Source: a bacterium (lineage in GTDB: Bacteria; Bacteroidota; Ignavibacteria; Kapaibacteriales; UBA2268). Taken from it: a stretch of DNA of 64,000 nucleotides. Location: the NCBI GenBank assembly GCA_043804925.1, contig JAZDIP010000104.1:63538-127537 (forward strand), written 5' to 3'. Shown one piece after another: positions 3,844 to 54,049 of the stretch (positions within the stretch are counted from its first letter, which is position 1; every line of letters begins with the position of its first letter). A program made the position numbers and the translations under genes. The notes below the pieces were generated by a model, which was not told where the DNA came from, did no database searches, and was given only the letters and a program-made list of their open reading frames with translations.

Positions 3844-3880
3844 AATTTTCCCGTTAGCATCTCTTGAATAATAAGTAATT

Positions 3881-3943
3881 TTACATTCTACATTTTACAT
3901 TATTTCCAAAACCCTATACCCAATACCCTAAACCCTATTCAAA
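3881..3943. repeat. Heptamer word-repeat spacer: the reverse complement of (AATGTAR)n followed by CCCTAWA-like words.
   Basis: The sequence is ttacattctacattttacattatttcc aaaaccctatacccaatacccta aaccctatt. It belongs to the same word family as 14198-14326 and 45121-45163. Confidence 0.6.
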
Positions 3944-11236: not shown

Positions 11237-11262
11237 GTCATCCTGAGCTTGTCGAAGGATGC
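11237..11262. repeat. Hairpin repeat family copy (agtcatcctgagcttgtcgaaggatgc).
   Basis: CATCC/GGATG inverted arms. Same family as 673, 16800, 25009 and 48039 (reverse orientation). Confidence 0.6.
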
Positions 11263-11265
11263 ATT

Positions 11266-11345
11266 AAAATTCGGAAAAAGGAGAACGGAAAAAGGAAAAG
11301 GGAGAATGCAGAAGGACGGCAGACGGAAAGACTATAGAACAATAG
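11266..11345. repeat. Purine-rich word-repeat spacer (GGAAAAG / GACGGCA / AACAATAG words).
   Basis: aaaaggagaacggaaaaaggaaaagggagaatgcagaaggacggcagacggaaagactatagaacaatagaacaatagaac. Confidence 0.55.
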
Positions 11346-11370
11346 AACAATAGAACTAAAATACTAAAAA

Positions 11371-11410
11371 GAAGTGAAGAAACTCAAAAGGTTCTTCACT
11401 TCTTTTTTGT
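11371..11410. terminator. Bidirectional rho-independent terminator between the convergent OPT transporter and Rrf2 genes.
   Basis: gaagtgaagaa-actcaaaagg-ttcttcacttc forms an 11-bp stem. TTTTTT follows on the plus strand and AAAAA precedes it (a T-run for the minus strand). Confidence 0.7.
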
Positions 11411-11513: not shown

Positions 11514-11957
11514 TCATATCTTGGTGTTTAGATTTTTTATTTTTTTTATGGTTACCTCGCGGATTTCTTCGAGATTGGATTCGCTGAGCATCCGGTATGT
11601 TTCGTCCCGGAGCTTACCCCATTTCTCGTGAACAGGGCAAGGATTGTCAGGAGAACATCCCGGAAATCCTAAGACACAATTGTGGAATATTTCGAGTCCG
11701 TCAATTGCCAAAACGATTTCGATTAATTTAATCTGGTTTGCAGGTTTGCCAAGGAAGAAACCGCCGTTCTTGCCTTTGCGTGAAGCAACAATACCATTGA
11801 GCGTAAGTGTTTGAAGCACTTTGGAAACAAACTCTTTCGGAACGTTGATTTCTTCCGAAATTTCTTTAGCACTCTTCATTGTGTTTTTATCCAGCGAGGA
11901 CAAAAACAGCACTGATTGAAGAGCAAGCTCGCATTTTTTTGAAAATATTACTGTCAT
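11514..11957 (-). CDS. Rrf2-family transcriptional regulator (IscR/NsrR-like, Fe-S cluster-binding type).
   Basis: N-terminal wHTH (ELALQSVLFLS...KEISEEINVPKEFVSKVLQTL). Three clustered Cys in CVLGFPGCSPDNPCPVH, typical of cluster-ligating Rrf2 proteins. Confidence 0.75.
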   Translation of the reverse strand: MTVIFSKKCELALQSVLFLSSLDKNTMKSAKEISEEINVPKEFVSKVLQTLTLNGIVASRKGKNGGFFLGKPANQIKLIEIVLAIDGLEIFHNCVLGFPGCSPDNPCPVHEKWGKLRDETYRMLSESNLEEIREVTIKKIKNLNTKI

Positions 11958-12008
11958 TTTTTTTCCTTTCTTTAGGTGTTGAAGCTATTAGGCATTTGGG
12001 TTTTTTTG

Positions 12009-12263
12009 TTAATGTTTTTTTAAGGAGCGGAAAAGGTCAGTGAGGATTTTTTTTATTTCCTCAAGTTTTATTTCACAGTCTTTCAAATCACCTTCCTTTA
12101 TGTATCCTAAGCTATCGGCTAATAAAATCTGATAATGCAATTCTTTGAGAGAAGCATAAATTATATCAAGGAATCGGAGATATTCTGATGAACTTTCTCT
12201 TACACAACCCTCAACTATATTTGAAGGAACCGAAACAGCAGACTTCTTCATTTGCGATGTCAA
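12009..12263 (-). pseudogene. N-terminally truncated four-helix-bundle protein (23S rRNA intervening-sequence protein family, PF05635-like). About 35 N-terminal residues are missing and the start is a TTG.
   Basis: KKSAVSVPSNIVEGCVRESSSEYLRFLDIIYASLKELHYQILLADSLGYI matches the family core (...SIPSNIAEG..R.S..EF..FL.IA.GS..EL.TQL.LA..LGY). An in-frame TGA lies immediately upstream of the TTG. Confidence 0.5.
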
Positions 12264-12538
12264 TCAATATATTTCATTTTTTGGAAAATTCCTTGTTATT
12301 TTTTATATAATAAGAGTTAAATCATCGGCTAGTTCAAATGCCCTCAGTTTTGTATTGTCTCTCATAAATACCCTAAATTTCTTTCTTCCTAATAGTCTAA
12401 ATTCCTAAACTCTTAATCTCCTAAGAACAAAATTAAAAAAAATTTTGGAAATAAGATAAAAAAGTCTTAATTTTGAAACGGACTTTAAAGTCTGATTATA
12501 AAATATGTGTTAAAATATACAATTTAGGAGATACAGAA

Positions 12539-12853
12539 ATGGCTGAAAAAATGAATTTTAAAAAAGATTTGGGTTATACTGACGGTTCAATAATCAGTAA
12601 GATGATAATTAAAAAAGAAGCCGGCAACGTTACTTTGTTTTCTTTTGATAAGGGACAATCATTGAGCGAGCATACGGCTCCATTTGATGCTTTAGTCCAA
12701 ATTGTTGATGGAAAAGCCGAAATACATATTGATAAAGTACCTTATGTATTAAATGAGGGAGAGTCAATTGTAATGCCTGCTGACCATCCTCATGCGGTAG
12801 TTGCCCTTGAGAAATTTAAGATGTTGTTGACAATGATTAAGAGTAAGGTTTAA
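12539..12853 (+). CDS. Cupin-domain protein (small single-domain cupin).
   Basis: GxxxxH...E...G core in FSFDKGQSLSEHTAPFDALVQIVDGKAEIHIDK...MPADHPHAV. AGGAG RBS before the ATG at 12539; the ORF-track TTG at 12473 is less likely. Confidence 0.6.
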   Translation: MAEKMNFKKDLGYTDGSIISKMIIKKEAGNVTLFSFDKGQSLSEHTAPFDALVQIVDGKAEIHIDKVPYVLNEGESIVMPADHPHAVVALEKFKMLLTMIKSKV

Positions 12854-12915
12854 TCAATTGTCAATTGTTAATTGTTAATTGTTAATGAAGACAGAAGACA
12901 GAAGACAGAAGGGAG
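12852..12915. repeat. Word-repeat spacer: (CAATTGTTAATTGTTAA)n followed by (GAAGACA)3.
   Basis: tcaattgtcaattgttaattgttaattgttaatgaagacagaagacagaagacagaagggag. Confidence 0.7.
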
Positions 12916-12952
12916 AAATAAATAATATTAAAAATGTAGAAAAGGTGAGAAA

Positions 12953-14197
12953 ATGAGTGAACTAATAAATAATTCGGAAAACAGAAAAAAGTTATTAAAG
13001 CATTTGATTTTGCAATTGCATGAAGGAACTGCTCCGGAGCAGGTTAGAAAACAACTAATGGATTTGATGCAAAAAATTCCTTATGGAGAAATTGTAGAAG
13101 TCGAACAGGAACTGATTAATGAAGGTTTACCTGAAGCAGAAGTAATCAAATTATGCGATATTCACGGAAAAGTTCTTGAAGGCAATATTGACCATACTGC
13201 GGCAAAGGAAGTTCCTGAAGGTCATCCGGTTGATACATTCAAAAAAGAGAATATTGAACTATCCAAAGTTGTTGATTCATTAAATAATTTCCTTAACGAG
13301 ATAACAGCAGATGGTAAACAGATAACGGCAGATAGTTTAGTTTCATCATTGAATAAAATCAAAGGAATGTTCAATGCTTTGATGGATGTTGACAAGCACT
13401 ATCAAAGAAAGGAAAATTTGTTATTCCCGTTTTTAGAAAAAAAGAATATCACAGGACCTCCCAAAGTTATGTGGGCAAAGCACGACGAAACAAGAGAGAA
13501 ACTGAAAGCCGCTATTGAGGCATGCAATCCCGAAGCTATTGCCGATAATGATGATTTCCAATCCGCTGTTGAGTTCTTATTCAAGCCGGCGGCTGAAGCG
13601 GTTACTGATATGATAATGAAGGAAGATGAAATTTTGTTTCCGATGGCGATGGATTTATTGACTGATTTGGAATGGTATGAAATTTATCAACAGACATTAG
13701 AGATAGGATTTTGCCTTTACGATCCGCAAGTTGAATGGCATCCCATTGGTGTTGAAGATGAACTGGTACATTCTAAAAGCGATGAAAATTTGATTCAATT
13801 ACCTTCAGGTAGCTTCACACCTCATGAATTGAATGCTCTTTTGAATACACTACCATTCGATTTGACTTTTGTTGATAAAGATGATAAGGTTAGATATTTT
13901 ACTCAGGGAGAGGAAAGGATTTTTGCAAGAAACAGAGCAATTTTAAAACGTGATGTTCGGTTGTGTCATCCACCTTCAAGTGTGCATATTGTTGACCAAA
14001 TAATCAATGACTTCAAGACAGGCAAGCAAGACAGGGCTCCTTTTTGGATTAATATGCACGAACAATTTATTCACATAGAATATTTTGCAGTCAGGGATGA
14101 AAATGGTGAGTATCTTGGTACATTGGAAGTGAGCCAGAATGCTACCGGATTGAGGAATCTTGAAGGTGAGCAAAGACTTCTGTCTTATAGTAAGTGA
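12953..14197 (+). CDS. DUF438-type protein with a hemerythrin-like cation-binding region and a C-terminal PAS-like domain.
   Basis: 414 aa. N-terminal helical DUF438-like region; H/E-rich hemerythrin-like motifs (KHYQRKENLLFP..WAKHDETRE). Architecture recognised from memory of DUF438 family proteins. Confidence 0.5.
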   Translation: MSELINNSENRKKLLKHLILQLHEGTAPEQVRKQLMDLMQKIPYGEIVEVEQELINEGLPEAEVIKLCDIHGKVLEGNIDHTAAKEVPEGHPVDTFKKENIELSKVVDSLNNFLNEITADGKQITADSLVSSLNKIKGMFNALMDVDKHYQRKENLLFPFLEKKNITGPPKVMWAKHDETREKLKAAIEACNPEAIADNDDFQSAVEFLFKPAAEAVTDMIMKEDEILFPMAMDLLTDLEWYEIYQQTLEIGFCLYDPQVEWHPIGVEDELVHSKSDENLIQLPSGSFTPHELNALLNTLPFDLTFVDKDDKVRYFTQGEERIFARNRAILKRDVRLCHPPSSVHIVDQIINDFKTGKQDRAPFWINMHEQFIHIEYFAVRDENGEYLGTLEVSQNATGLRNLEGEQRLLSYSK

Positions 14198-14326
14198 GGG
14201 AAAAGGGAAAAGGGAAAAGGGAGAAGGGAAAAAGGAGAAATAGAAATTAGAATGTAGAATGTAGAATGTAGAATGTAAAATGTAAAATGTAGAATGTAGA
14301 ATGTAAAATGAAAATCGAACTAAGAT
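14198..14326. repeat. Word-repeat spacer: (GGGAAAA)4-5 followed by (AATGTAGA/AATGTAAA)~10.
   Basis: gggaaaagggaaaagggaaaagggagaagggaaaaaggag...agaatgtagaatgtagaatgtagaatgtaaaatgtaaaatgtagaatgtagaatgtaaaatg. Confidence 0.8.
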
Positions 14327-14866
14327 ATGGAAAATAAATTGATTATAACACCTGAAACAAAGGTGTATGAATTGCTGAAGGAATATCCTCAACTCGAGGA
14401 TGTTTTAATAGAAATAACACCGGTTTTCAAGAAATTGAAGAATCCGGTTCTGAGAAAAACAATTGCAAGAGTTACCAATTTGAAGCAGGCGGCGGCTGTT
14501 GGTAATATTTCTTTAGGTGAAATAATAAACAAATTAAGAGAGGAAGTTGGTCAGGACACTATGGAAAATATTAAAGAAGAAAAGCGATACAAAGACTCAC
14601 CGGCATGGTTTGACAGTTCAAAAGTTACGGATAGTCTCGATGCAATGCCGATTATCAATTCCGGTGGTCACCCATTGGACACAGTAATAAAAGCAGTTAA
14701 AAGTTTAGAGAATGGGAATATCTTTGAGCTGATTACACCATTTTTACCAATGCCGTTGATTGATAAAGTAGAAGAATTGGGCTTTGAATCATGGTCAACT
14801 CAAATTGATGCTAATGTTTTCAAAACGTATTTTATTAGTCGACAGTCTACAGTCGACAGTCATTAG
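14327..14866 (+). CDS. DUF1858-domain protein (N-terminal DUF1858-like redox-associated domain plus a C-terminal extension).
   Basis: ITPETKVYELLKEYPQLEDVLIEITPVFKKLKNPVLRKTIARVTNLKQAA resembles DUF1858, a domain often found with hybrid-cluster/ferredoxin proteins. Confidence 0.45.
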   Translation: MENKLIITPETKVYELLKEYPQLEDVLIEITPVFKKLKNPVLRKTIARVTNLKQAAAVGNISLGEIINKLREEVGQDTMENIKEEKRYKDSPAWFDSSKVTDSLDAMPIINSGGHPLDTVIKAVKSLENGNIFELITPFLPMPLIDKVEELGFESWSTQIDANVFKTYFISRQSTVDSH

Positions 14867-14896
14867 TCGTTAGTTGATATAATTACTAATTACTAA
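14861..14896. repeat. Word-repeat spacer (AGTCGAC/AGTCTAC words, then ATTACTA words).
   Basis: tagtcgacagtctacagtcgacagtcattagtcgttagttgatataattactaattactaatt. Confidence 0.6.
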
Positions 14897-14961
14897 TTTA
14901 AATTGATAAATGATATTGAAAAACGGGAAATTTATTAAATTGATTAAAATATGGAAAGAAT

Positions 14962-15807
14962 ATGTTAAGACAAATAATTGAAATATATGAAGAAAAATGT
15001 GATGGATGCGGACTTTGTGTTCCCGAATGTCACGAGGGTGCATTGCAAATTATTGAGGGCAAGGCAAGATTGATAAGCGACTTATTCTGTGACGGACTTG
15101 GTGCTTGTATAGGTCATTGTCCTTTGGATGCGATAAATATTATTGAGCGTGAAGCTGAACCTTATGATGAAATAAAAGTATTGAAACAGATACTGAATCA
15201 ACCTCGTTCGGTTTTAAAAGCTCACATGAAGCATTTGCTTGACCACCAGGCATTTGAGCATCTTGATACCGCGGTAAATTATTTGAAAGCGGATGGCATC
15301 AATAATCCACTTGATGAAATTGAAAATGAAAAACCGGATAAAAGTGTCCTTGGGTGTCCGGGCTCTATGATGAAGCAATTTGAATCACCTGAAACAGACC
15401 TTGATTCAGACAGTCCGGATATTCCTTCAGAGTTAAGGCAGTGGCCTGTTCAGCTGCATCTTGTAAATCCAAATGCACCATATTTTAAAGACAGTGAGCT
15501 TGTAGTAATGGCTACCTGTGGGCCCATTGCCAGTGCAAATGTTCACAGAGATTACATTAAGGGAAAATCAATAGTAGTTGCATGCCCCAAGCTTGACTAT
15601 ACCGCCCCTTATACTGAAAAGCTGGCGGAGATATTTAATTTTGGAAATATAAAAAAAGTAAATGTAGTGATAATGCAGGTTCCCTGCTGCAGTGGACTTT
15701 TGAAAATCGCTACAGATGCTAAAAAGCTATCAGGAAGGGAAGACATGACAATTGTTGAGAATGTTCTTGATTTACGTGGGAATATAATTAAGGTAGTAAA
15801 AGCATAG
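14962..15807 (+). CDS. 4Fe-4S dicluster ferredoxin-domain protein with a ~200-aa C-terminal region of unknown function.
   Basis: CDGCGLCVPECHEG and CDGLGACIGHCPLDA (two CxxCxxCxxxCP-type cluster motifs). Confidence 0.65.
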   Translation: MLRQIIEIYEEKCDGCGLCVPECHEGALQIIEGKARLISDLFCDGLGACIGHCPLDAINIIEREAEPYDEIKVLKQILNQPRSVLKAHMKHLLDHQAFEHLDTAVNYLKADGINNPLDEIENEKPDKSVLGCPGSMMKQFESPETDLDSDSPDIPSELRQWPVQLHLVNPNAPYFKDSELVVMATCGPIASANVHRDYIKGKSIVVACPKLDYTAPYTEKLAEIFNFGNIKKVNVVIMQVPCCSGLLKIATDAKKLSGREDMTIVENVLDLRGNIIKVVKA

Positions 15808-28298: not shown

Positions 28299-28320
28299 TT
28301 ACACAGAGTTTCACAGAGAA
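28299..28320. repeat. CACAGAG word repeat (left flank of the GxxExxY gene).
   Basis: ttacacagagtttcacagagaa. The inverted counterpart lies at 28703-28738, with a second tandem copy at 28801-28843. Confidence 0.6.
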
Positions 28321-28692
28321 TTATAGAATAAATCTCCTGATACCATTTTTTAACATTGTAACATTAAAATTGATTAAAAGTCCGATCTTTTTATTTGAAA
28401 ATTTCAAATATGTAAGAATTTGAGCTTCATGCACCGGATTAAATTCATCAACAGTTTTTAGTTCAACAACAACCAGGTCTTCAATCAATAAATCAATTCG
28501 ATAACCACATTCTAATTTCTTATCTTTATATACTACAGGAACAGGTTTTTGCCTTTCGTATGATAGCCCTGCTTTCTGTAACTCATACGACAAACATTCC
28601 TCATATGCGGATTCTAATAATCCGGGACCTAAATTCCTGTGAACTTCTATTGCACGGCCAATTATTAGCTCAGTTATTTTATTTAAATCCAT
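28321..28692 (-). CDS. GxxExxY-family protein (PD-(D/E)XK nuclease-like small protein).
   Basis: ELIIGRAIEVHRNLGPGLLESAYEECL...RIDLLIEDLVVVELKTV... contains the GxxExxY motif (GLLESAY) and D...E.K nuclease-like residues. The ATG at 28692 is preferred; the ORF-track TTG at 28713 lies inside the CACAGAG repeat. Confidence 0.75.
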   Translation of the reverse strand: MDLNKITELIIGRAIEVHRNLGPGLLESAYEECLSYELQKAGLSYERQKPVPVVYKDKKLECGYRIDLLIEDLVVVELKTVDEFNPVHEAQILTYLKFSNKKIGLLINFNVTMLKNGIRRFIL

Positions 28693-28702
28693 AAAAATTC
28701 TT

Positions 28703-28843
28703 CCTCTGTGCAACTCTGTGAATTCTCAGTGCAACTACAATACTAAATTTATTAAATACTATTATAAAAAATTACAAAGCAATAGTTCTACAAATTCTTT
28801 CTCTGTGGAACTCTGTGAATTCTCAGTGCAACTCTGTGTAACT
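28703..28843. repeat. Two tandem copies (28703-28738 and 28801-28843) of CTCTGTG-word repeats, the reverse complement of the CACAGAG repeat on the other side of the GxxExxY gene.
   Basis: cctctgtgcaactctgtgaattctcagtgcaactac / ctctgtggaactctgtgaattctcagtgcaactctgtgtaact. Confidence 0.65.
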
Positions 28844-28869
28844 ATATTTTTTAAAATTTATAAAAAAAA

Positions 28870-32818: not shown

Positions 32819-34021
32819 TTATTTGCAACACCCAACTTCTTTCATGCACTTTTTGATTCTTTCCAAAGTTCTTTCAATATCATCATCCAATCCCATCGAA
32901 AAACGAATCAATCCGGGAGTCATTCCCATTTCCTTTTGCTCTTCTTCGGGTATTTCAGACGAAGTGCTTCTCCCCGGTGAACTGAACAATGTTTTGTAGT
33001 AACCCAAGCTGACAGCAAAGTATCCTACTTTTTCTTCCTGCATTTTAACTAAAAGATTATTTGCATTTTCAGTAGTCTCTGCATCAATTGTAATCATACC
33101 GCTGTAACCAAAATTCTGATTAAATAATTTTGATGCAAACTCGTATTGTGGATGGCTCGCCAATCCCGGATATATTACCTTTATTCCCATCTTCTCAAGA
33201 TTAGTTGCAATAAACAAAGCATTTTTACTATGCTGTCTCATCCTGATATGTAATGTCCTTAAATTCTTCAAAATACTCGAAGACCTAATGCTGTCAAGGA
33301 CCGGACCAATCAACATTGCAGCCCCGTCATTCACGCTTTTCATTGAACTTATAAATTCATGAGGTCCGCAAACACATCCTCCCAATGCATCACTTGCTCC
33401 GTTGATAAACTTTGTTAAGCTATGAACGACTATATGAGCACCTAATTTATATGGATTGATACAATAAGGTGTAAATGTATTATCAACAATCAATTTTAAG
33501 TTATATTTATCTGCTAATTTCCTCAACTCTGCCAAATCAGGCAGTTCAAGCATCGGATTACTCAAAGATTCACAATATATTACCTTTGTTTTCTTATTGA
33601 TTTTTTCCTCGACTGCATTCAAATCCAGTATATTCACAAAATGAGTATTAATACCTATGCGTGGAAAGAAATTCTTTAAAAGAGCATAAGTCCCTCCGTA
33701 AGTTACGCGGTGAGATATTATTTCATCACCCATTTTACATAATTGCAATAGTGTCGTACTTATCGCTCCCATTCCCGAACCTGTTACCAAAGCATCTTCA
33801 GTACCTTCCAACAAAGCCAGAGCTTTTGAAAGATTTTCATTTGCCGGGTTCAGGTGCCGTGAATAAAGAAAACATCCCTGCATCTCCTCCTGAAACAGTT
33901 TTTCCATTGTTGCCGGGTGCATAAATGTAAAAGTTGATGAATCAGTTATTGATGGATTAATACCTCCATATTCACCAAAAACCTGAAAATCCTGAAAAGC
34001 ATTTGCATAATCACTTGACAT
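32819..34021 (-). CDS. Cys/Met-metabolism PLP-dependent enzyme (methionine gamma-lyase / O-acetylhomoserine sulfhydrylase family).
   Basis: SLTKFINGASD PLP-lysine motif; NPANENL...GSGMGAI family pattern. The ATG at 34021 with a GAGGA RBS is preferred over the ORF-track TTG at 34069. Confidence 0.7.
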   Translation of the reverse strand: MSSDYANAFQDFQVFGEYGGINPSITDSSTFTFMHPATMEKLFQEEMQGCFLYSRHLNPANENLSKALALLEGTEDALVTGSGMGAISTTLLQLCKMGDEIISHRVTYGGTYALLKNFFPRIGINTHFVNILDLNAVEEKINKKTKVIYCESLSNPMLELPDLAELRKLADKYNLKLIVDNTFTPYCINPYKLGAHIVVHSLTKFINGASDALGGCVCGPHEFISSMKSVNDGAAMLIGPVLDSIRSSSILKNLRTLHIRMRQHSKNALFIATNLEKMGIKVIYPGLASHPQYEFASKLFNQNFGYSGMITIDAETTENANNLLVKMQEEKVGYFAVSLGYYKTLFSSPGRSTSSEIPEEEQKEMGMTPGLIRFSMGLDDDIERTLERIKKCMKEVGCCK

Positions 34022-34230
34022 TTTATTTTCCTCAATAATAAATTTAAAATTACAAGAACAAATATGCAAAAAAATGCTAAGTCAAACAAGAAGGTTTTTA
34101 ATTATTACAAAATAAATAATAAATTTAATAAATATGCCCGTTTTTATTTACTTCAATTTTAGTAAATTAGTAAATATTCTCTTTTGATTAATTTAAATTT
34201 AATGATAAGGTGCTGAAAGAAAGTATTCAA

Positions 34231-44342: not shown

Positions 44343-44435
44343 TGAAATTGTTATATCAGCGTAATTATTTCTGTTGGTTGAAATTACTGACAGATTTAAA
44401 TATTGTATTTTGATTTCTCCCAAGGAATGAAAATT

Positions 44436-44467
44436 AACCGTCTTGGCTTGCTGAGACGGTTTTTTTA
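44436..44467 (+). terminator. Rho-independent terminator downstream of ftsZ.
   Basis: aaccgtct-tggcttgctg-agacggtt followed by TTTTTTT. Confidence 0.7.
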
Positions 44468-44860
44468 AATGAAATAAAATTTTTTTAGTTGTTTGTCAAA
44501 GAACGATGCAATAGTTAAAGTTGCGGTGCAATTCATGGGCTTTGTATCTCTTTTATTTCCTTGGCATTAGGAGCATCAGCGGAAAAAGTTGCATCAATTT
44601 CACCGATTTTTTCAGTTTTATTATCTGTTATCTGTAATCCATTTTTCGTTATTTTATAAAACCGAAATCAATTTACAAAGAACATGCTGGACAAATTTAG
44701 TTGTTAGGTATTAAACGTAATGGAAATTATTTTAAAAGGACTATTATTTTGTTCTCGGTTGTCAGTTATCGGTATCGGTTGAAAACGAAACAGTATCCTT
44801 CGACAAGCTCTGGAAGACCGCAGACAGCAGACAGCAGGCGGGAGGAAGAGAATACAGTTA

Positions 44861-45516
44861 CAGACAGATTCACTGAGGAGGCATGGAGGGACACAGAGAA
44901 GAAGTCTGAACCGTTGATTGTAGCTGATTGAACTGATTTTGGTGATTATTAACAGCGTAGCTGTGGTATCTATTATGTCGCCACTACGTGGCTTTGAGCG
45001 TTGTTGGTTGTCGTGTGCTACAAAGGTGATACCACTACGTGGTTAAGAATTTCTGTCGGAACTGGGATTTTTAGGATTTATGGGATGGACAGGAAAATTG
45101 CTGTCAGATGTAACAAAGACAGAACGAAATTAAAATGTAAAATGTAGAATGTAGAATGTAGAATTGAAGGCAGTTACACGGAGCTACACAGAGGAGGCAC
45201 AGAGGGACACAGAGAAAATGTCTGAACCGTTGATTGTAGCTGATTGAAATGATTTCGCTGATTTTTTTAACAGCGTAGCTGTGGTATCTTGGTAGAAAAA
45301 GTGAACCAATAGCGGTTTGAACAGCGTAGCTGTGGCATTTTTATATAATCGTAATTAGTAATCGTTAATTCGTAATTGAATCAATGCCGCCACTACGTGG
45401 CTTTGGTCGTTGTTGGTTGTCGTGTGCTACAAAGGTGATACCACTACGTGGTTAAGAATTTTTGTCGGAACTGGGATTTTTAGGATTTTTGGGATGGACA
45501 GGAAAATTGCTGTCAG
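44861..45516. repeat. Two tandem copies (about 44861-45107 and 45174-45516) of a composite repeat unit.
   Basis: The unit contains CACAGAG words, tctgaaccgttgattgtagctgattgaa, aacagcgtagctgtggtatct (x3), ccactacgtggc hairpins, gtcggaactgggatttttaggattt and a ctgtcag hairpin. AATGTAR heptamers (45121-45163) lie between the two copies. Confidence 0.7.
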
Positions 45517-45748
45517 TTGTAAAAAGTGACAGGACGGGAAAGCCACAGAGCCACACACCCCCTACCCCCCTCTTGATAGGGGGGACAAGAGACCCCACCC
45601 CTGCTCTCCCCGAATCAGGGAGGGAGAAGAAAGATGTAATCTTTAGGCGATATTTTTTTCCTCATCGCTTTTTGCTGTCAGGTGTAGGAACTGACAGAAC
45701 GGAATATTACCTCAATTTATTGATTCGAATGAGTAATTATATATACTA

Positions 45749-47110: not shown

Positions 47111-47153
47111 TAAAACAAAATCATGTTTTCATATTAATCATATAAATCATAGT

Positions 47154-47552
47154 TCAGACAATTTGTTTGTATTTCTTATTTTCAAATCTTTTGAACTCAA
47201 GACTTTGAGCTCCAAAATTAATCAACAATCCGATTTCCAGATTGTATGCTTCCAAATAATTGATTGCCTGTGCTAAATGAACTTTCTCCAATTCAATCAA
47301 TGCTTTCAACTCAACTGAAATTTTATCTTCAACAAGAAAATCAACTCGTCTTTCACCAACTTCAACGTGTTTGTAATGAACTTTTATTGGTTGTTCTCTT
47401 ATGAATTTTATCTTTCTTAGCCGGAATTCTTCTGCTAATGCTCTTTGATAAATCAACTCCTGAAAACCATTGCCTAATGCTTTGTGTACTTCTAAAGCAG
47501 CACCAATAATTTTTGATGTCAATTCCGAATATTTATATTTTTCATTTATCAT
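47154..47552 (-). CDS. GxxExxY-family protein (PD-(D/E)XK nuclease-like), second copy.
   Basis: SKIIGAALEVHKALGNGFQELIYQRAL (GxxExxY) ... RVDFLVEDKISVELKAL. 132 aa. Flanked on both sides by direct repeats. Confidence 0.75.
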   Translation of the reverse strand: MINEKYKYSELTSKIIGAALEVHKALGNGFQELIYQRALAEEFRLRKIKFIREQPIKVHYKHVEVGERRVDFLVEDKISVELKALIELEKVHLAQAINYLEAYNLEIGLLINFGAQSLEFKRFENKKYKQIV

Positions 47553-47557
47553 AATTT

Positions 47558-47700
47558 TTTGTCTGAACTATGATTTTTGTGATTAATATGATTGCTGAGA
47601 TTATATTTGTCAGAACTGTGATTCATATGATTTTTATGATTGCCATGATTATTTATTATTCAAACATATTTATTTCTTCTTCTGGGGCATCTATTCTTTT
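47558..47700. repeat. Right-hand repeats flanking the GxxExxY gene: two GTCTGAACTATGATTTTTGTGATT-type words and the right copy of the ~55-bp direct repeat.
   Basis: tgtctgaactatgatttttgtgatt..tgtcagaactgtgattcatatgatttttatgatt..gattatttattattcaaacatatttatttcttcttctggggcatctattctttt. Confidence 0.65.
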
Positions 47701-47810
47701 GCTTGATTTCTTAAACGTTGTTTGCAATCCTTTGCCGGGGATTTGGACGGATTTGTGCATCTCCTTAAGCACATCGAGGCAGTTGCCGTAGTAGAGTTCG
47801 TTCATTACCT
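47664..47810 (-). pseudogene. Remnant of a DNA methyltransferase N-terminus (49-codon ORF); its 3' end forms the right direct repeat.
   Basis: The minus-strand ORF reads MNELYYGNCLDVLKEMHKSVQIPGKGLQTTFKKSSKRIDAPEEEINMFE. MNELYYGNCLDVLKEM is the classic N-terminus of N6/N4 DNA methylases (MNKLYYGDCLEVLK...), but the sequence diverges after ~16 aa and stops. A decayed copy of the same tail (KRIDTPEEEINMFYE*) sits at 47020-47068. Confidence 0.4.
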
Positions 47811-47820
47811 TAGTTCATAA

Positions 47821-47940
47821 AGTTTATAAAGTATAAAGTTTAAAAGTTTAAAAGTCCCAAAAGGAAAATTACGAAAGATTTGAGAGAAAAGCAAGAAGTC
47901 TGAAGACAGAAGTCAGAAGTCTGAATTCTCGTGAACCGAA
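47821..47940. repeat. Word-repeat spacer: (AAAGTTTAWAAG)n, then (GAAGTCWGAAGAC)n.
   Basis: ttagttcataaagtttataaagtataaagtttaaaagtttaaaag ... aagcaagaagtctgaagacagaagtcagaagtctgaa. Confidence 0.6.
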
Positions 47941-48038
47941 AACCGAAAAAATCACTTATGAAAAGGACATCTTATTATTCGTTGTGTTACCATAGTACAA
48001 TCCCTATCGGGATAGGCAATTGTTAATTGTTAATGATA

Positions 48039-48062
48039 TCCTTCGACAAGCTCAGGATGATA
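48039..48062. repeat. Hairpin repeat family copy in reverse orientation (atccttcgacaagctcaggatgat), preceded by (TTGTTAA) words.
   Basis: Reverse complement of the 11237 copy (atcatcctgagcttgtcgaaggat). Confidence 0.6.
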
Positions 48063-48390
48063 GGAGAAGGGGAGACGGCAGACGGCAGTCAAAAAGACAG
48101 AAAAATAAAAGATTTACAGGCAGGTGAAAGCCCAATTGTTTACATACTTTGCCCTGACAGGTTTTGTACTTCCGGCTTTGCCGTTGAACAATTCTCTTGA
48201 AATTGATGCGAGGTATTTAAAACTGTTGTTGGATTTAGAAAATTCCCCCTTTTCGTTTTCTCTATCATTTTTTAAATTTGAGAAAGCGAAAGAATAGTTG
48301 TATAATTCTATACCGTATCTGAATTCTGAGTGTATTCCCATTGTATTACCCAATCTATTTTATATATTAATTTAAAAAATTTGTGCGGAG

Positions 48391-51099: not shown

Positions 51100-51204
51100 A
51101 TTTTCATCCGGTTTGTTAAATTAAAATTCAAAAATAATATAATTCCTTTATTTTCAATTTTCGACAAATTTAAAAAGAGCAATTTAAAAAACAAAATTTT
51201 AAAA

Positions 51205-51337
51205 CCATAATTCAATCCCTCCGGGATTGTGAAAACAAAAATAATTATCGTTTTCTACATATATTCAATCTCTCCGGGATTGTGAAATCCTTGGTTTACC
51301 ACTGCTACCATAGTTCAATCCCTCCGGGATTGTTCTT
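51205..51337. repeat. Mini-array of three palindromic direct repeats (a 24-30 bp core TTCAATCCCTCCGGGATTGTGAAA) separated by unrelated 20-29 bp spacers. CRISPR-like geometry, but no cas genes nearby; alternatively a REP/terminator hairpin cluster.
   Basis: Copies at 51211-51234, 51264-51287 and 51314-51334 (the last is degenerate at its distal end). The core forms the hairpin ttcaatccc-tcc-gggattg(t)gaa. Spacers are acaaaaataattatcgttttctacatata and tccttggtttaccactgctaccatag. Confidence 0.55.
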
Positions 51338-51388
51338 GCACCCTTCTCCCTTTTCCTTTCTCCTCCAATGGTTTCGCTTTTTCGTGTT

Positions 51389-51721
51389 TCAATAAGTTAA
51401 AACTTCATAAAGATTTTTCTTTATTTCATTTAACTGAAAATCTGTGATTTCTCCTATTTTATTGATTAATCTGTCCTTGCTGATAGTCCTGATTTGAAAT
51501 GTAATAATCTCGGAATCATTCTTTAAATTATTGTTGCTGTCAGCTTTTAACTGTACACATCCTGCATAACCTTTGAGTGCCGAACTTAATGGGCAAACGA
51601 TGCAGACATCAAGATTATCATTCATTGCATTACCGCTTATAATAACAACCGGTCTGATTCCCTGTTGTTCGGAACCTTTTGAAGGATTCAAATTAGCAAA
51701 AAATATTTCTTTTTGTTTCAT
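51389..51721 (-). CDS. MazF/PemK-family type II toxin (mRNA interferase).
   Basis: SKGSEQQGIRPVVIISGNAMN...VCIVCPLSS...ITFQIRTISKDRL matches the PemK/MazF fold signature. 4-bp overlap with the upstream antitoxin gene. Confidence 0.75.
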   Translation of the reverse strand: MKQKEIFFANLNPSKGSEQQGIRPVVIISGNAMNDNLDVCIVCPLSSALKGYAGCVQLKADSNNNLKNDSEIITFQIRTISKDRLINKIGEITDFQLNEIKKNLYEVLTY

Positions 51722-51960: not shown

Positions 51961-52205
51961 AAGATATTTACTATTTATATTTACAATAATATTTACATTT
52001 TACAAATATAACGAATATTTATATTTTATATTGTTAAATTACACTTTATTTCTCCTCTCTTCTCTCTTTTTCTTTCTTCCATTTTCCATTGTCGAACAAC
52101 GACTGACGACTACTTATCCATAAACTCATATACTCCATTCCATTCCTTGAGCAGTCCGACACATTTTCGCATCTGCAGATTCTTACAACGTTCTATGAAA
52201 AATGT

Positions 52206-52355
52206 CTACACCGGAACTTGTAGGTGCGAACGGCCGTTCCCCCCTACGTTTTCATATATTCGCTTTGCATTGTTGAAATCACCTTTTTGATACAAAGCAA
52301 ACGCTTCCTGCAATGTTTTTTCGTTTCTCTGTCTCGTTTCTTTCAAAAAACTCAA
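52206..52355 (-). pseudogene. N-terminal fragment (about 49 codons) of a TPR-repeat protein. The reading frame is broken at an inserted perfect palindrome GAACGGCCGTTC.
   Basis: The minus-strand frame reads (L)SFLKETRQRNEKTLQEAFALYQKGDFNNAKRIYENVGGNGRSHLQVPV*. LQEAFALYQKGDFNNAKRIYENV is a canonical TPR N-terminus. No continuation exists in any frame. The local GC is higher than the surroundings. Confidence 0.35.
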
Positions 52356-53051: not shown

Positions 53052-53137
53052 ATTACTTTTTCCCTTTTATCAATTAATAAGATATTTTCTTCATAAACCT
53101 TTATTCTTTTCCTTTCTCCCTTTTGCTTTCTCCTCTT

Positions 53138-54049
53138 TTAATGCTTAATCACATCCAATTTATACGAAAGTCCCGGCAGGTCTTTAATTAAAAATCCGGA
53201 AGCATATTTCGGAATTCCTTTTAATCTTTTTATATCAATATCCTTCCTGAATCCCATTTCCTGAAACATGGTAACAATATCTTCCGTAGCGACATTGCCA
53301 GCGGCTACTTTTGTAAATGGACAGCCACCTAAGCCACCAAATGCAGTTTCAAATATTTTCACACCAGTTTTATATGCGGCATAAACATTTGCCAATCCCA
53401 TTCCGAAAGTATTGTGGAAATGACATGCCGTAACAACGGAATTGTCCATTTCTTGAATAGTACTGAACATTCTTTCTACTTTTGCCGGATTTGCATATCC
53501 CGCAGTATCAGCCAAACTGATTGTAGTAATACCTGCATTTAGATATTCTTTGATAATTGAATAAACTTTTTCTTCGTCAATATCACCATCGAAACCGCAA
53601 CCGAAAGCTGATTGAACAGATGCCTGAACTTTTTTCCCTGCAGACATCGCCTCTTTTGCCATTTTGATGATTGTCTTTTGAGCTTCAGATGGCGTCATTC
53701 CCGTATTTTTCATGCTGTGGGTTTTGCTTGCGGAGACTCCCATACAGAACAGAGCAACACCACAAGCCATACCTCTTTCTAAACCTTTTTCATTCAAAAC
53801 CAATCCCGACAAAACCGCTTTTGCAGGTTTGTTTTCAGGTTGATTATAATACTCAAAAAGGTCATCTGTATCAGCCATTTGAAACACCTTTTTGGGATTC
53901 ACAAAAGAGCCGAGCTGTATAATATCAATGTTGGAGCCAATCATATCATCAGCCCATTGAATTTTTGTTATTGTCGGTACCGGTTCCGGCTCAATTTGAA
54001 GACCGTCACGCAATCCAACTTCGTGTATAAATATTTCCTGAATATCCAT
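53138..54049 (-). CDS. Hydroxymethylglutaryl-CoA lyase-like enzyme (DRE-TIM/pyruvate carboxyltransferase fold).
   Basis: HEVGLRDGLQIE..., ...HFHNTFGMGLANVYAAYKTGVKIFETAFGGLGGCPF... match HMG-CoA lyase signatures. Confidence 0.75.
   Translation of the reverse strand: MDIQEIFIHEVGLRDGLQIEPEPVPTITKIQWADDMIGSNIDIIQLGSFVNPKKVFQMADTDDLFEYYNQPENKPAKAVLSGLVLNEKGLERGMACGVALFCMGVSASKTHSMKNTGMTPSEAQKTIIKMAKEAMSAGKKVQASVQSAFGCGFDGDIDEEKVYSIIKEYLNAGITTISLADTAGYANPAKVERMFSTIQEMDNSVVTACHFHNTFGMGLANVYAAYKTGVKIFETAFGGLGGCPFTKVAAGNVATEDIVTMFQEMGFRKDIDIKRLKGIPKYASGFLIKDLPGLSYKLDVIKH

Follow-up and report, generated by a model that had tools for sequence, protein, structure and literature searches.

In a 64,000-nt stretch of DNA (hereafter the window; contig JAZDIP010000104.1) from a bacterium of the Kapaibacteriales, four co-oriented genes encode a cupin, a DUF438-hemerythrin-PAS protein, a DUF1858 protein and a Fer4-dicluster protein, divergently from a gene for an Rrf2-family regulator. 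The three spacers within this operon hold arrays of tandemly repeated heptamers. We consider it probable that these arrays are no device of the operon and belong to the known heptamer repeats of the long simple sequence repeat (LSSR), short tandemly repeated repetitive (STRR) and TAACTGA types, being lineage-wide, expanded by slippage and tolerated in the transcribed DNA at the ends of genes.

Period-7 tandem arrays in all three internal spacers, as reported in an initial annotation of this DNA, were recovered both by Tandem Repeats Finder (TRF) and by our own period scan. The arrays of spacer 1 (12854-12911, plus strand) read (TCAATTG)2(TTAATTG)3, then (GAAGACA)3.6, and begin 1 nt past the cupin stop codon; TRF reports them as AATTGTT x4.4 (12856-12886) and GAAGACA x3.6 (12887-12911). 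Those of spacer 2 (14197-14310, plus strand) take in the final A of the TGA stop codon and run through about six copies of GGGAAAA/GGGAGAA, followed by (AATGTAG/AATGTAA)9 (TRF: AGGGAAA x5.7 at 14197-14236, TAGAATG x9.0 at 14248-14310). Each AATGTAR unit is A-ATG-TAR, that is, a start codon with a stop codon immediately after it. In spacer 3 (14837-14898, plus strand), TRF and a comparison of spacers give AGTCGAC AGTCTAC AGTCGAC AGTCATT AGTCGTT AGTTGAT and (TAATTAC)2.7, with AGTCGAC x3.6 at 14837-14861 and TAATTAC x2.7 at 14880-14898 by TRF alone.

Details of the earlier description had to be revised. The spacers had been called filled with heptamers, and although arrays are present in all three, the last 25-60 nt of each, before the start codon, are unique and non-repetitive. 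The array assigned to the third gap is likewise real, but its start at 14837 lies inside the annotated DUF1858 open reading frame (ORF), and the last seven residues of the DUF1858 protein (QSTVDSH) are encoded by the array. In relatives this protein ends ...YFISR*, ...YFFSR* or ...YFIKS*. The DUF1858 start codon, behind spacer 2, is also without the AAGGA motif that is present in relatives.

As RNA, none of the spacers folds significantly more stably than shuffled sequence. The minimum free energy (MFE) is -7.7 kcal/mol for spacer 1 (z=-0.24), 0 kcal/mol for the 129 nt of spacer 2 (z=+1.43) and -22.5 kcal/mol for spacer 3 (z=-1.66). A terminator scan found 0 terminator-like sites against 2.8 expected, and Rfam gave no match either in the operon region at a permissive threshold or in the whole window at the gathering threshold.

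The arrays extend well beyond this operon. Our own self-match period scan gave 16 arrays of period 7 for the window as a whole, where first-order Markov simulations predict 0.8; at a stricter threshold the observed and expected figures for its non-coding DNA were seven and 0.01. Arrays at periods 6, 9 and 10 were not enriched, and those at period 8 weakly so. Nearly all are non-coding, and they are spread over about ten intergenic regions. Individual words turn up at several loci that are not linked, four or five in the case of AATGTAR, five for GGRARAA and two or three for each of GAAGACA, AATTGTT, AGACRGC and AGTCGWY. In six array pairs the two members match exactly as necklaces (1.5 pairs expected; P about 0.017), and the junction AATTGTTAATTGTTAATGA occurs at both 12863 and 48018.

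Several of these sites resemble the operon spacers closely. The 3' untranslated region (UTR) of the upstream transporter gene contains a mosaic of (GGAAAAR)n, GACGGCAGACGG and (ATAGAACA)3 (11266-11356, plus strand; TRF and repeat search), which lies between the transporter stop codon (11232) and a hairpin that precedes a T-run (about 11368-11405). Arrays between two minus-strand genes (3878-3937, minus strand; TRF) read TAG|GGTATTGGGTATAGGGTTTTGG in sense, then (AATGTAR)3, and are 96% complementary to 14279-14302. An (AATGTAR)5.6 array in a 1.4-kb repeat island downstream of ftsZ (45127-45164, plus strand; TRF) matches 14229-14281 at 83%, while a cluster of AGAAGTC/GAAGACA, AACCGAA, AATTGTT and AGACGGC arrays beside a GxxExxY gene (47894-48088, plus strand; TRF) has words in common with spacer 1. 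On the minus strand, the repeat search found a GGAGAAAGGAAAAGGGAGAAGGG array, given here as read in the sense of the minus-strand genes and downstream of a MazF-like gene (51338-51363), that is 79% complementary to 14206-14239. Two further minus-strand arrays, both sense, directly follow stop codons: a mosaic (AGTCGTC AGTCGTT GTTCGAC)(AATGGAA)2(GAAAGAA...GGAGAAA) after a TAG (52050-52115), and a GGAGAAAGGAAAAGA-type array after a TAA (53105-53139; TRF). Six of the eight mosaics in the window start no more than 3 nt from a stop codon, and, in gene blocks on either strand, the recurring words always face the same way with respect to local transcription.

We extended the analysis to a survey sample of 161 sequences (1.48 Mb), mostly from Bacteroidota. 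Period 7 again dominates, with 49 arrays, 41 of them non-coding, against 15 at period 8 and at most eight at each of periods 5, 6 and 9. Arrays occur at 0.40 per kb in co-directional gaps and 0.37 in convergent gaps but at only 0.12 in divergent gaps. Since divergent gaps are about threefold poorer, the arrays associate with the 3' ends of genes rather than with promoters. A purine-rich sense strand was not significant as a general rule across the 161 sequences (26 versus 23), and TAGTCGWY was not enriched as a general gene-end motif (6 observed, 3.3 expected).

Comparison of the operon between related species showed how readily the arrays turn over. The loci L001, L161 and L162 ('Bacteroidetes/Chlorobi group bacterium ChocPot_Mid', a hot-spring lineage) have the same five genes and the same palindrome upstream of the cupin gene. 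L001/L161, at 81% concatenated protein identity to the window, have repeat-free spacers of 56, 57 and 67 nt and neither period-7 nor period-8 arrays in 21 kb, compared with spacers of 95-129 nt in the window. As the same operon stands there without arrays, it works without them; an operon-specific role, which the initial annotation had implied, is not supported, given this and the spread of arrays over the window. In L081, spacers 1 and 3 have arrays of different words and copy numbers, (GGAYAAC)14 among them, and L163/L082 have long, repeat-filled spacers throughout the operon, again differing from the window in words and copy numbers. By concatenated protein identities L163 falls outside (window, (L081, L001)), which places the array-free lineage among array-bearing ones; either the L001 lineage lost its arrays or the others gained them repeatedly.

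Two modes of growth are suggested by these comparisons. In spacer 3 the gene end ATT/TTT AGT CGT TAG/TAA is common to the window, L081 and L163. Relative to the gene end in L163 and L081, four additional units of 7 nt (28 nt in all) seem to be present in the window, through which ...ISR* becomes ...ISRQSTVDSH*, and this looks like expansion in situ. In L163, a relative with 81% identity, one ordered composite of about 115 nt occupies all four operon spacers (L163 2744-5915, also in L082; nhmmer E=1e-21 to 2e-24). It consists of (AGTCGWC)n, AAGTGYT-type units, TTTAAATTC units and (CTGATAAY/CGGACAA)n, and a weak fifth copy (E about 0.04) lies past Rrf2, on the other strand of the DNA yet sense-oriented like the rest. 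All copies are sense-oriented and lie directly after stop codons. Because the composite is repeated over the spacers, blocks can evidently be copied too. The composite model had no significant nhmmer match in the window or in other species (E>0.5), and we rejected a composite element common to several species; the apparent shared grammar is at the level of words only.

The arrays have the properties of heptanucleotide repeats: a 7-nt unit in at least three head-to-tail copies, mainly intergenic, at many loci and lineage-specific. STRRs are the cyanobacterial class of heptamer repeats. The arrays share with LSSRs and STRRs the 7-nt unit, the range of about 3-14 head-to-tail copies, the intergenic position at many loci, the use of several words, the sporadic distribution over lineages and a proposed slippage origin. 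They differ in their host, an uncultured bacterium of the FCB group with 'Bacteroidetes/Chlorobi group bacterium ChocPot_Mid' as its nearest named relative, in their words (AATGTAR, GGGAAAA, GAAGACA, AATTGTT, AGTCGAC and TAATTAC in the window) and in a stop-proximal, sense-oriented and promoter-poor bias that is documented only here, in a small sample. Mixed heptamer arrays in intergenic regions of several Bacteroidetes and cyanobacteria, with shorter and repeat-free spacers in close relatives, have been described by MacGregor (2015; PMC4679880), who also recorded indels in 7-nt steps between Cyanothece strains and could only guess at function. In the summary given in that paper, Mrazek (2007) found heptanucleotide LSSRs to be the commonest class and proposed slippage. 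The TAACTGA repeats of Beggiatoaceae, Cyanobacteria and some Bacteroidetes (PMC4679880) are similar in that mixed arrays fill intergenic regions, relatives with the same neighbourhood are repeat-free, the arrays are 'forward' with respect to the downstream ORF and the mechanism is not known; TAACTGA itself, however, is not among the repeat words found in the window. BOGUAY repeats (orange Guaymas 'Maribeggiatoa') sit a few nt upstream of start codons (PMC4679880), whereas the window's arrays abut the upstream stop and leave the region before the start codon unique.

These data allow us to hypothesise how such arrays arise and persist. Short local seeds would expand and contract in place by 7-nt steps, through replication slippage or unequal exchange, and multi-word blocks would occasionally be copied between intergenic regions. 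MutS does not catch loops of more than about 4 nt, which could help to explain a build-up of 7-8-nt units. The arrays would persist mainly in transcribed DNA past stop codons, in 3' UTRs and inter-cistronic gaps, where, being without structure and keeping clear of the 25-60 nt ahead of the next start codon, they would be nearly neutral and so tolerated. As a consequence the three operon spacers would have been lengthened and the C-terminal tail of DUF1858 rewritten, and the genes are probably still co-transcribed. Control of the operon would be better ascribed to the Rrf2-family protein, as a repressor at the conserved palindrome ahead of the cupin gene.

Several observations weigh against this account. 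The orientation of AATGTAR, GGRARAA and AGTCGWY agrees in roughly 12 of 12 instances, which simple symmetric slippage does not predict, and given this consistent sense orientation, selection at the RNA level or a process linked to transcription is possible. Words are shared between unlinked arrays above chance. Arrays are found in this operon in three of four related species, so that the presence of some array, whatever its words, could be maintained. The co-transcription presumed across the spacers follows only from their having no terminator-like signals.

The alternative that fares best takes the sense-oriented arrays to be functional RNA modules, unstructured multivalent landing pads that tune re-initiation on, or decay of, the downstream cistron. 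The partner would be an RNA-binding protein, of cold-shock-domain, S1 or CsrA-like type, that covers about 7 nt, or the ribosome itself, landing through Shine-Dalgarno-like GGGAAAA/GGAGAAA and the AUG-UAR start-stop units. We regard this as rather unlikely, although several features favour it: word orientation follows transcription on both DNA strands, arrays start at stop codons and are depleted in divergent but not convergent gaps, and arrays persist in three of four related species while their words turn over. Spacer 2 in particular is fully unstructured, with Shine-Dalgarno-like purine units and nine A-AUG-UAR units, and stands before the DUF1858 start codon that lacks the AAGGA motif of relatives. 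MacGregor (2015; PMC4679880) proposed an RNA-binding-protein reading of heptamers, and a Nostoc preprint describes an about 2-fold change in reporter output on deletion of heptamer repeats. On the other hand, neither words nor copy numbers are conserved at orthologous positions, the operon of L001/L161 is array-free, and the many different words are hard to fit to one binding protein, which itself remains hypothetical. Purine richness of the sense strand was not significant across the survey, and purifying selection alone could yield the orientation and position seen.

A broader version holds that, in the window's lineage, post-stop sense arrays constitute a genome-wide post-transcriptional layer in which words turn over and 'array-ness' is maintained. 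As unstructured, multivalent RNA platforms made up of Shine-Dalgarno-like GGGAAAA units, AUG-UAR start-stop units and words that fit a 7-nt footprint, the arrays would hold ribosomes or a protein of cold-shock, S1 or KH type between cistrons and thereby set re-initiation or decay. We put this forward only tentatively and judge it unlikely.

Alternatively, the arrays could be ends, scars or modules of small non-autonomous mobile or cassette elements inserted in a fixed orientation past stop codons, with the four-helix-bundle and GxxExxY mini-genes of the window among the candidates. The L163 composite, in four spacers plus its weak fifth copy and always sense, would suit such an element, as would the short tandem arrays or inverted repeats that flank the pseudogene and the two GxxExxY genes, and the words and junctions, such as AATTGTTAATTGTTAATGA, shared between unlinked loci. 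Against it, the composite model has no significant match in the window or in any other species, the window's three spacers do not duplicate one another, and neither terminal inverted repeats nor target-site duplications were seen around the arrays. The mini-genes were also rejected as a general cause, since tblastn found their homologues in the window only and none near arrays in the 160 other loci. Repetitive extragenic palindromic (REP) units and bacterial interspersed mosaic elements (BIMEs) of enterobacteria are palindromic hairpins in intergenic mosaics. The arrays resemble them as short-motif mosaics in co-transcribed inter-cistronic or 3' UTR DNA, with a dispersed composite in L163, but those of the window are direct repeats without structure, palindromic unit or terminal inverted repeats. 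A mobile origin seems to us quite improbable.

Phase variation, which the initial annotation had raised, would make the arrays contingency tracts whose slippage switches individual cistrons on and off. Short tandem repeats are intrinsically prone to slippage, and the length of the array overlapping DUF1858 does set the frame of its last residues. In the contingency locus uspA2 of Moraxella, cited in PMC4679880, AGAT repeats in the 5' UTR are phase-variable, and the likeness to the arrays is that short tandem repeats lie in transcribed non-coding DNA beside genes. The position is wrong, however: each tract follows a stop codon or the last codons of a gene and ends ahead of the next ribosome-binding region, outside any promoter spacer or 5' coding region. 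The genes encode cytoplasmic redox or sensor proteins rather than surface or restriction-modification functions, and the imperfect units, with their mixed G/A variants, lower slippage rates. Nor do array lengths differ between assemblies of relatives. L082 and L163, assembled independently, are 99.9% identical: their 2297-nt alignment takes in two repeat spacers and has 2 mismatches and no gap. No difference separates the arrays of L009, L090 and L091. Identical assemblies speak weakly, and for the relatives only, against hypermutable tracts. A locus of the window's own species was not found in genome and metagenome scans, and look-ups of the exact Rrf2, cupin, DUF438, DUF1858 and Fer4 proteins returned no second contig; the sole entry 100% identical to the DUF438 protein is the window's own (P0001), and further matches are at most 83% identical. 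With position and gene class against it, we consider phase variation very improbable.

Finally, that the arrays are structure-based processing or attenuation sites (for RNase III, RNase E or terminators) giving differential expression within the operon, as had also been proposed, is scarcely credible: inter-cistronic position is all that speaks for the arrays themselves, besides a modest hairpin formed locally outside the repeats, towards the 3' end of spacer 3 (within 14887-14946), whereas the spacers lack significant folds (MFE 0 in spacer 2), terminator-like sites and any Rfam family, and L001/L161 manage without arrays.

The stretch 14887-14946 has a 70%-complementary copy at 34117-34176, some 50-110 nt upstream of the minus-strand gene 32819-34069 and in the same orientation relative to its gene as in spacer 3. 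The two may represent a shared 5'-leader element.

The genes themselves were assigned correctly at the outset, Pfam bearing out all five calls and the translation confirming three cysteines in the product of the divergent Rrf2 gene. The regulator (147 aa; 11514-11957, minus strand) matches Pfam Rrf2 (PF02082) at E=1.1e-26, with 94 bits against a cut-off of 30, and exceeds the NCBIfam rrf2_super (TIGR00738) cut-off (102 versus 73.3 bits). The operon comprises a Cupin_2 protein (104 aa; 12539-12853, plus strand; PF07883, E=4.4e-9), a DUF438, hemerythrin and PAS_10 protein (414 aa; 12953-14197, plus strand; Pfam), a DUF1858 and DUF2249 protein (179 aa; 14327-14866, plus strand; Pfam) and a Fer4-dicluster-domain protein (281 aa; 14962-15807, plus strand; Pfam Fer4_10, E=7.6e-7), whose L161 orthologue additionally has an AF_0155 domain (PF27217). 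At the core of the locus, DUF438 and DUF1858 form a pair that is conserved over the 161 loci and to which Rrf2, cupin and Fer4 genes are attached variably.

The label NsrR/IscR-like, given to the regulator earlier, was not sustained. Its score is far below the NCBIfam cut-offs for the NsrR equivalog (52.8 versus 182 bits) and the IscR equivalogs (49.4 versus 207.55 bits; 41.6 versus 275 bits), and the SufR, RirA and CymR equivalogs likewise all score far below cut-off. It resembles NsrR and IscR in its Rrf2 fold, its three-cysteine cluster, its divergent target operon and the palindrome, a predicted operator, over the putative promoter; it differs in these equivalog scores and in that the palindrome, with its TTWTRAAWCRGACT half-site, is specific to the window's clade. 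The cysteines form a cluster C94-x6-C101-x5-C107, within HNCVLGFPGCSPDNPCP, and would supply the ligands of a predicted Fe-S cluster. Only membership of the Rrf2 family appears justified for this protein.

The operon proteins are similarly hard to place. The DUF438 protein matches PDB 3cax, an uncharacterised protein, at E=3.3e-60, and the nearest solved structures are uncharacterised structural-genomics entries (3cax, 2qkp, 2fi0). Its resemblance to the YtfE/RIC di-iron repair protein is weak, the hemerythrin domain being the only common feature, and its scores against the YtfE/RIC equivalogs are well under cut-off (22.5 versus 254 bits; 20.8 versus 204.7). A literature search on DUF438 and DUF1858 returned nothing functional; one apparent match in fact concerned DUF4388. 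With the nearest structures uncharacterised and the equivalog scores low, a role of the operon in nitrosative or redox stress can only be inferred.

Upstream of the cupin gene, where a palindrome search from 12539 had been suggested, inverted repeats and conservation across species reveal a candidate promoter for the cupin operon together with a candidate Rrf2 operator (12444-12505, plus strand). Promoters of Bacteroidetes type have a -33/-7 consensus. In the window a TTTG (12444-12447) is followed after 20 nt by TAATTTTG (12468-12475), and three AGTCT/GACT half-sites form overlapping palindromes (AAAAGTCTTA at 12460-12469, GGACTTT at 12480-12486 and AGTCTGATTATAAAA at 12489-12503). The inverted repeats were detected in the window (12460-12505) and at the corresponding positions of L001, L081 and L163. 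The block as a whole is conserved in L001 and L081 and has a variant form in L163, and among the 161 loci the pattern AGTCY-N9-15-RGACT is confined to this small clade. The palindrome is unlike the known consensus sequences of NsrR and IscR. It plausibly overlaps the -7 box, which would be the classical layout of a repressor site, and its conservation makes it a plausible operator for the Rrf2 protein.

The gap between the Rrf2 and cupin genes is 581 nt here and 126-186 nt in relatives. It contains a pseudogene for a 23S_rRNA_IVP protein (four-helix-bundle, bAvd-like; 12009-12368, minus strand; PF05635, E=1.8e-29), with in-frame TAA and TGA codons and, directly upstream, a period-8 array of TTTAGGAR in minus-strand reading (12386-12424, minus strand; TRF period 8/16). 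Recoding of the in-frame TGA as glycine was rejected, because long ORFs are intact in the standard code and a TAA is also present. An intergenic comparison found the pseudogene to be absent from L001, L081 and L163, and L161 and L162 lack it as well. Inserted between the Rrf2 start and the conserved promoter region of that gene, it would lengthen the Rrf2 leader by about 455 nt relative to L001 and L081.

The window also contains other small repeat families and mini-genes. One of the two GxxExxY (PDDEXK_3) mini-genes, at 47129-47591 and 28299-28865, is bracketed by 33-nt inverted repeats (94% complementary), and the other has CACAGAG-type arrays of about 10 nt on either side; further CACAGAG-type arrays lie at 765-834, 44851-44903 and 45167-45219. 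The gene-free 1.4-kb island downstream of ftsZ (44343-45748) has several word arrays and internal direct duplications, of 142 nt (two copies, 95% identity) and 106 nt (two copies, 83%). A hairpin element of about 22 nt, ATCCTTCGACAAGCTCAGGAT, occurs three times (11237-11262 in reverse orientation, 44793-44815 and 48040-48062), each copy adjoining AGACRGC heptamers. A 27-nt hairpin-containing repeat, ACCATAGTTCAATCCCTCCGGGATTGT, is present in three copies at 51204-51333, spaced by 50-53 nt and downstream of the MazF-like toxin gene (51389-51721, minus strand), in a layout that is REP/BIME-like or very short CRISPR-like. Two probable gene remnants are found at 47640-47810 and 52116-52340, both on the minus strand; one resembles the N-terminus of a DNA methyltransferase and the other a cyclase C-terminal fragment split by the palindrome GTAGGGGGGAACGGCCGTTCGCACCTAC.

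In annotation, it would be a mistake to take the spacers described here for riboswitches or attenuators, or for phase-variable switches in an operon for nitrosative stress, and gene ends beside such arrays, of which the DUF1858 tail is an example, can be repeat-derived. For bacterial heptamer repeats in general, a single five-gene operon with its operator, array-bearing in the window, L081 and L163 but array-free in L001/L161, offers a clean natural comparison. Together with the hints of adjacency to stop codons, of sense orientation and of depletion from promoter-only gaps, it makes an RNA-level or transcription-linked explanation of the arrays a testable one.

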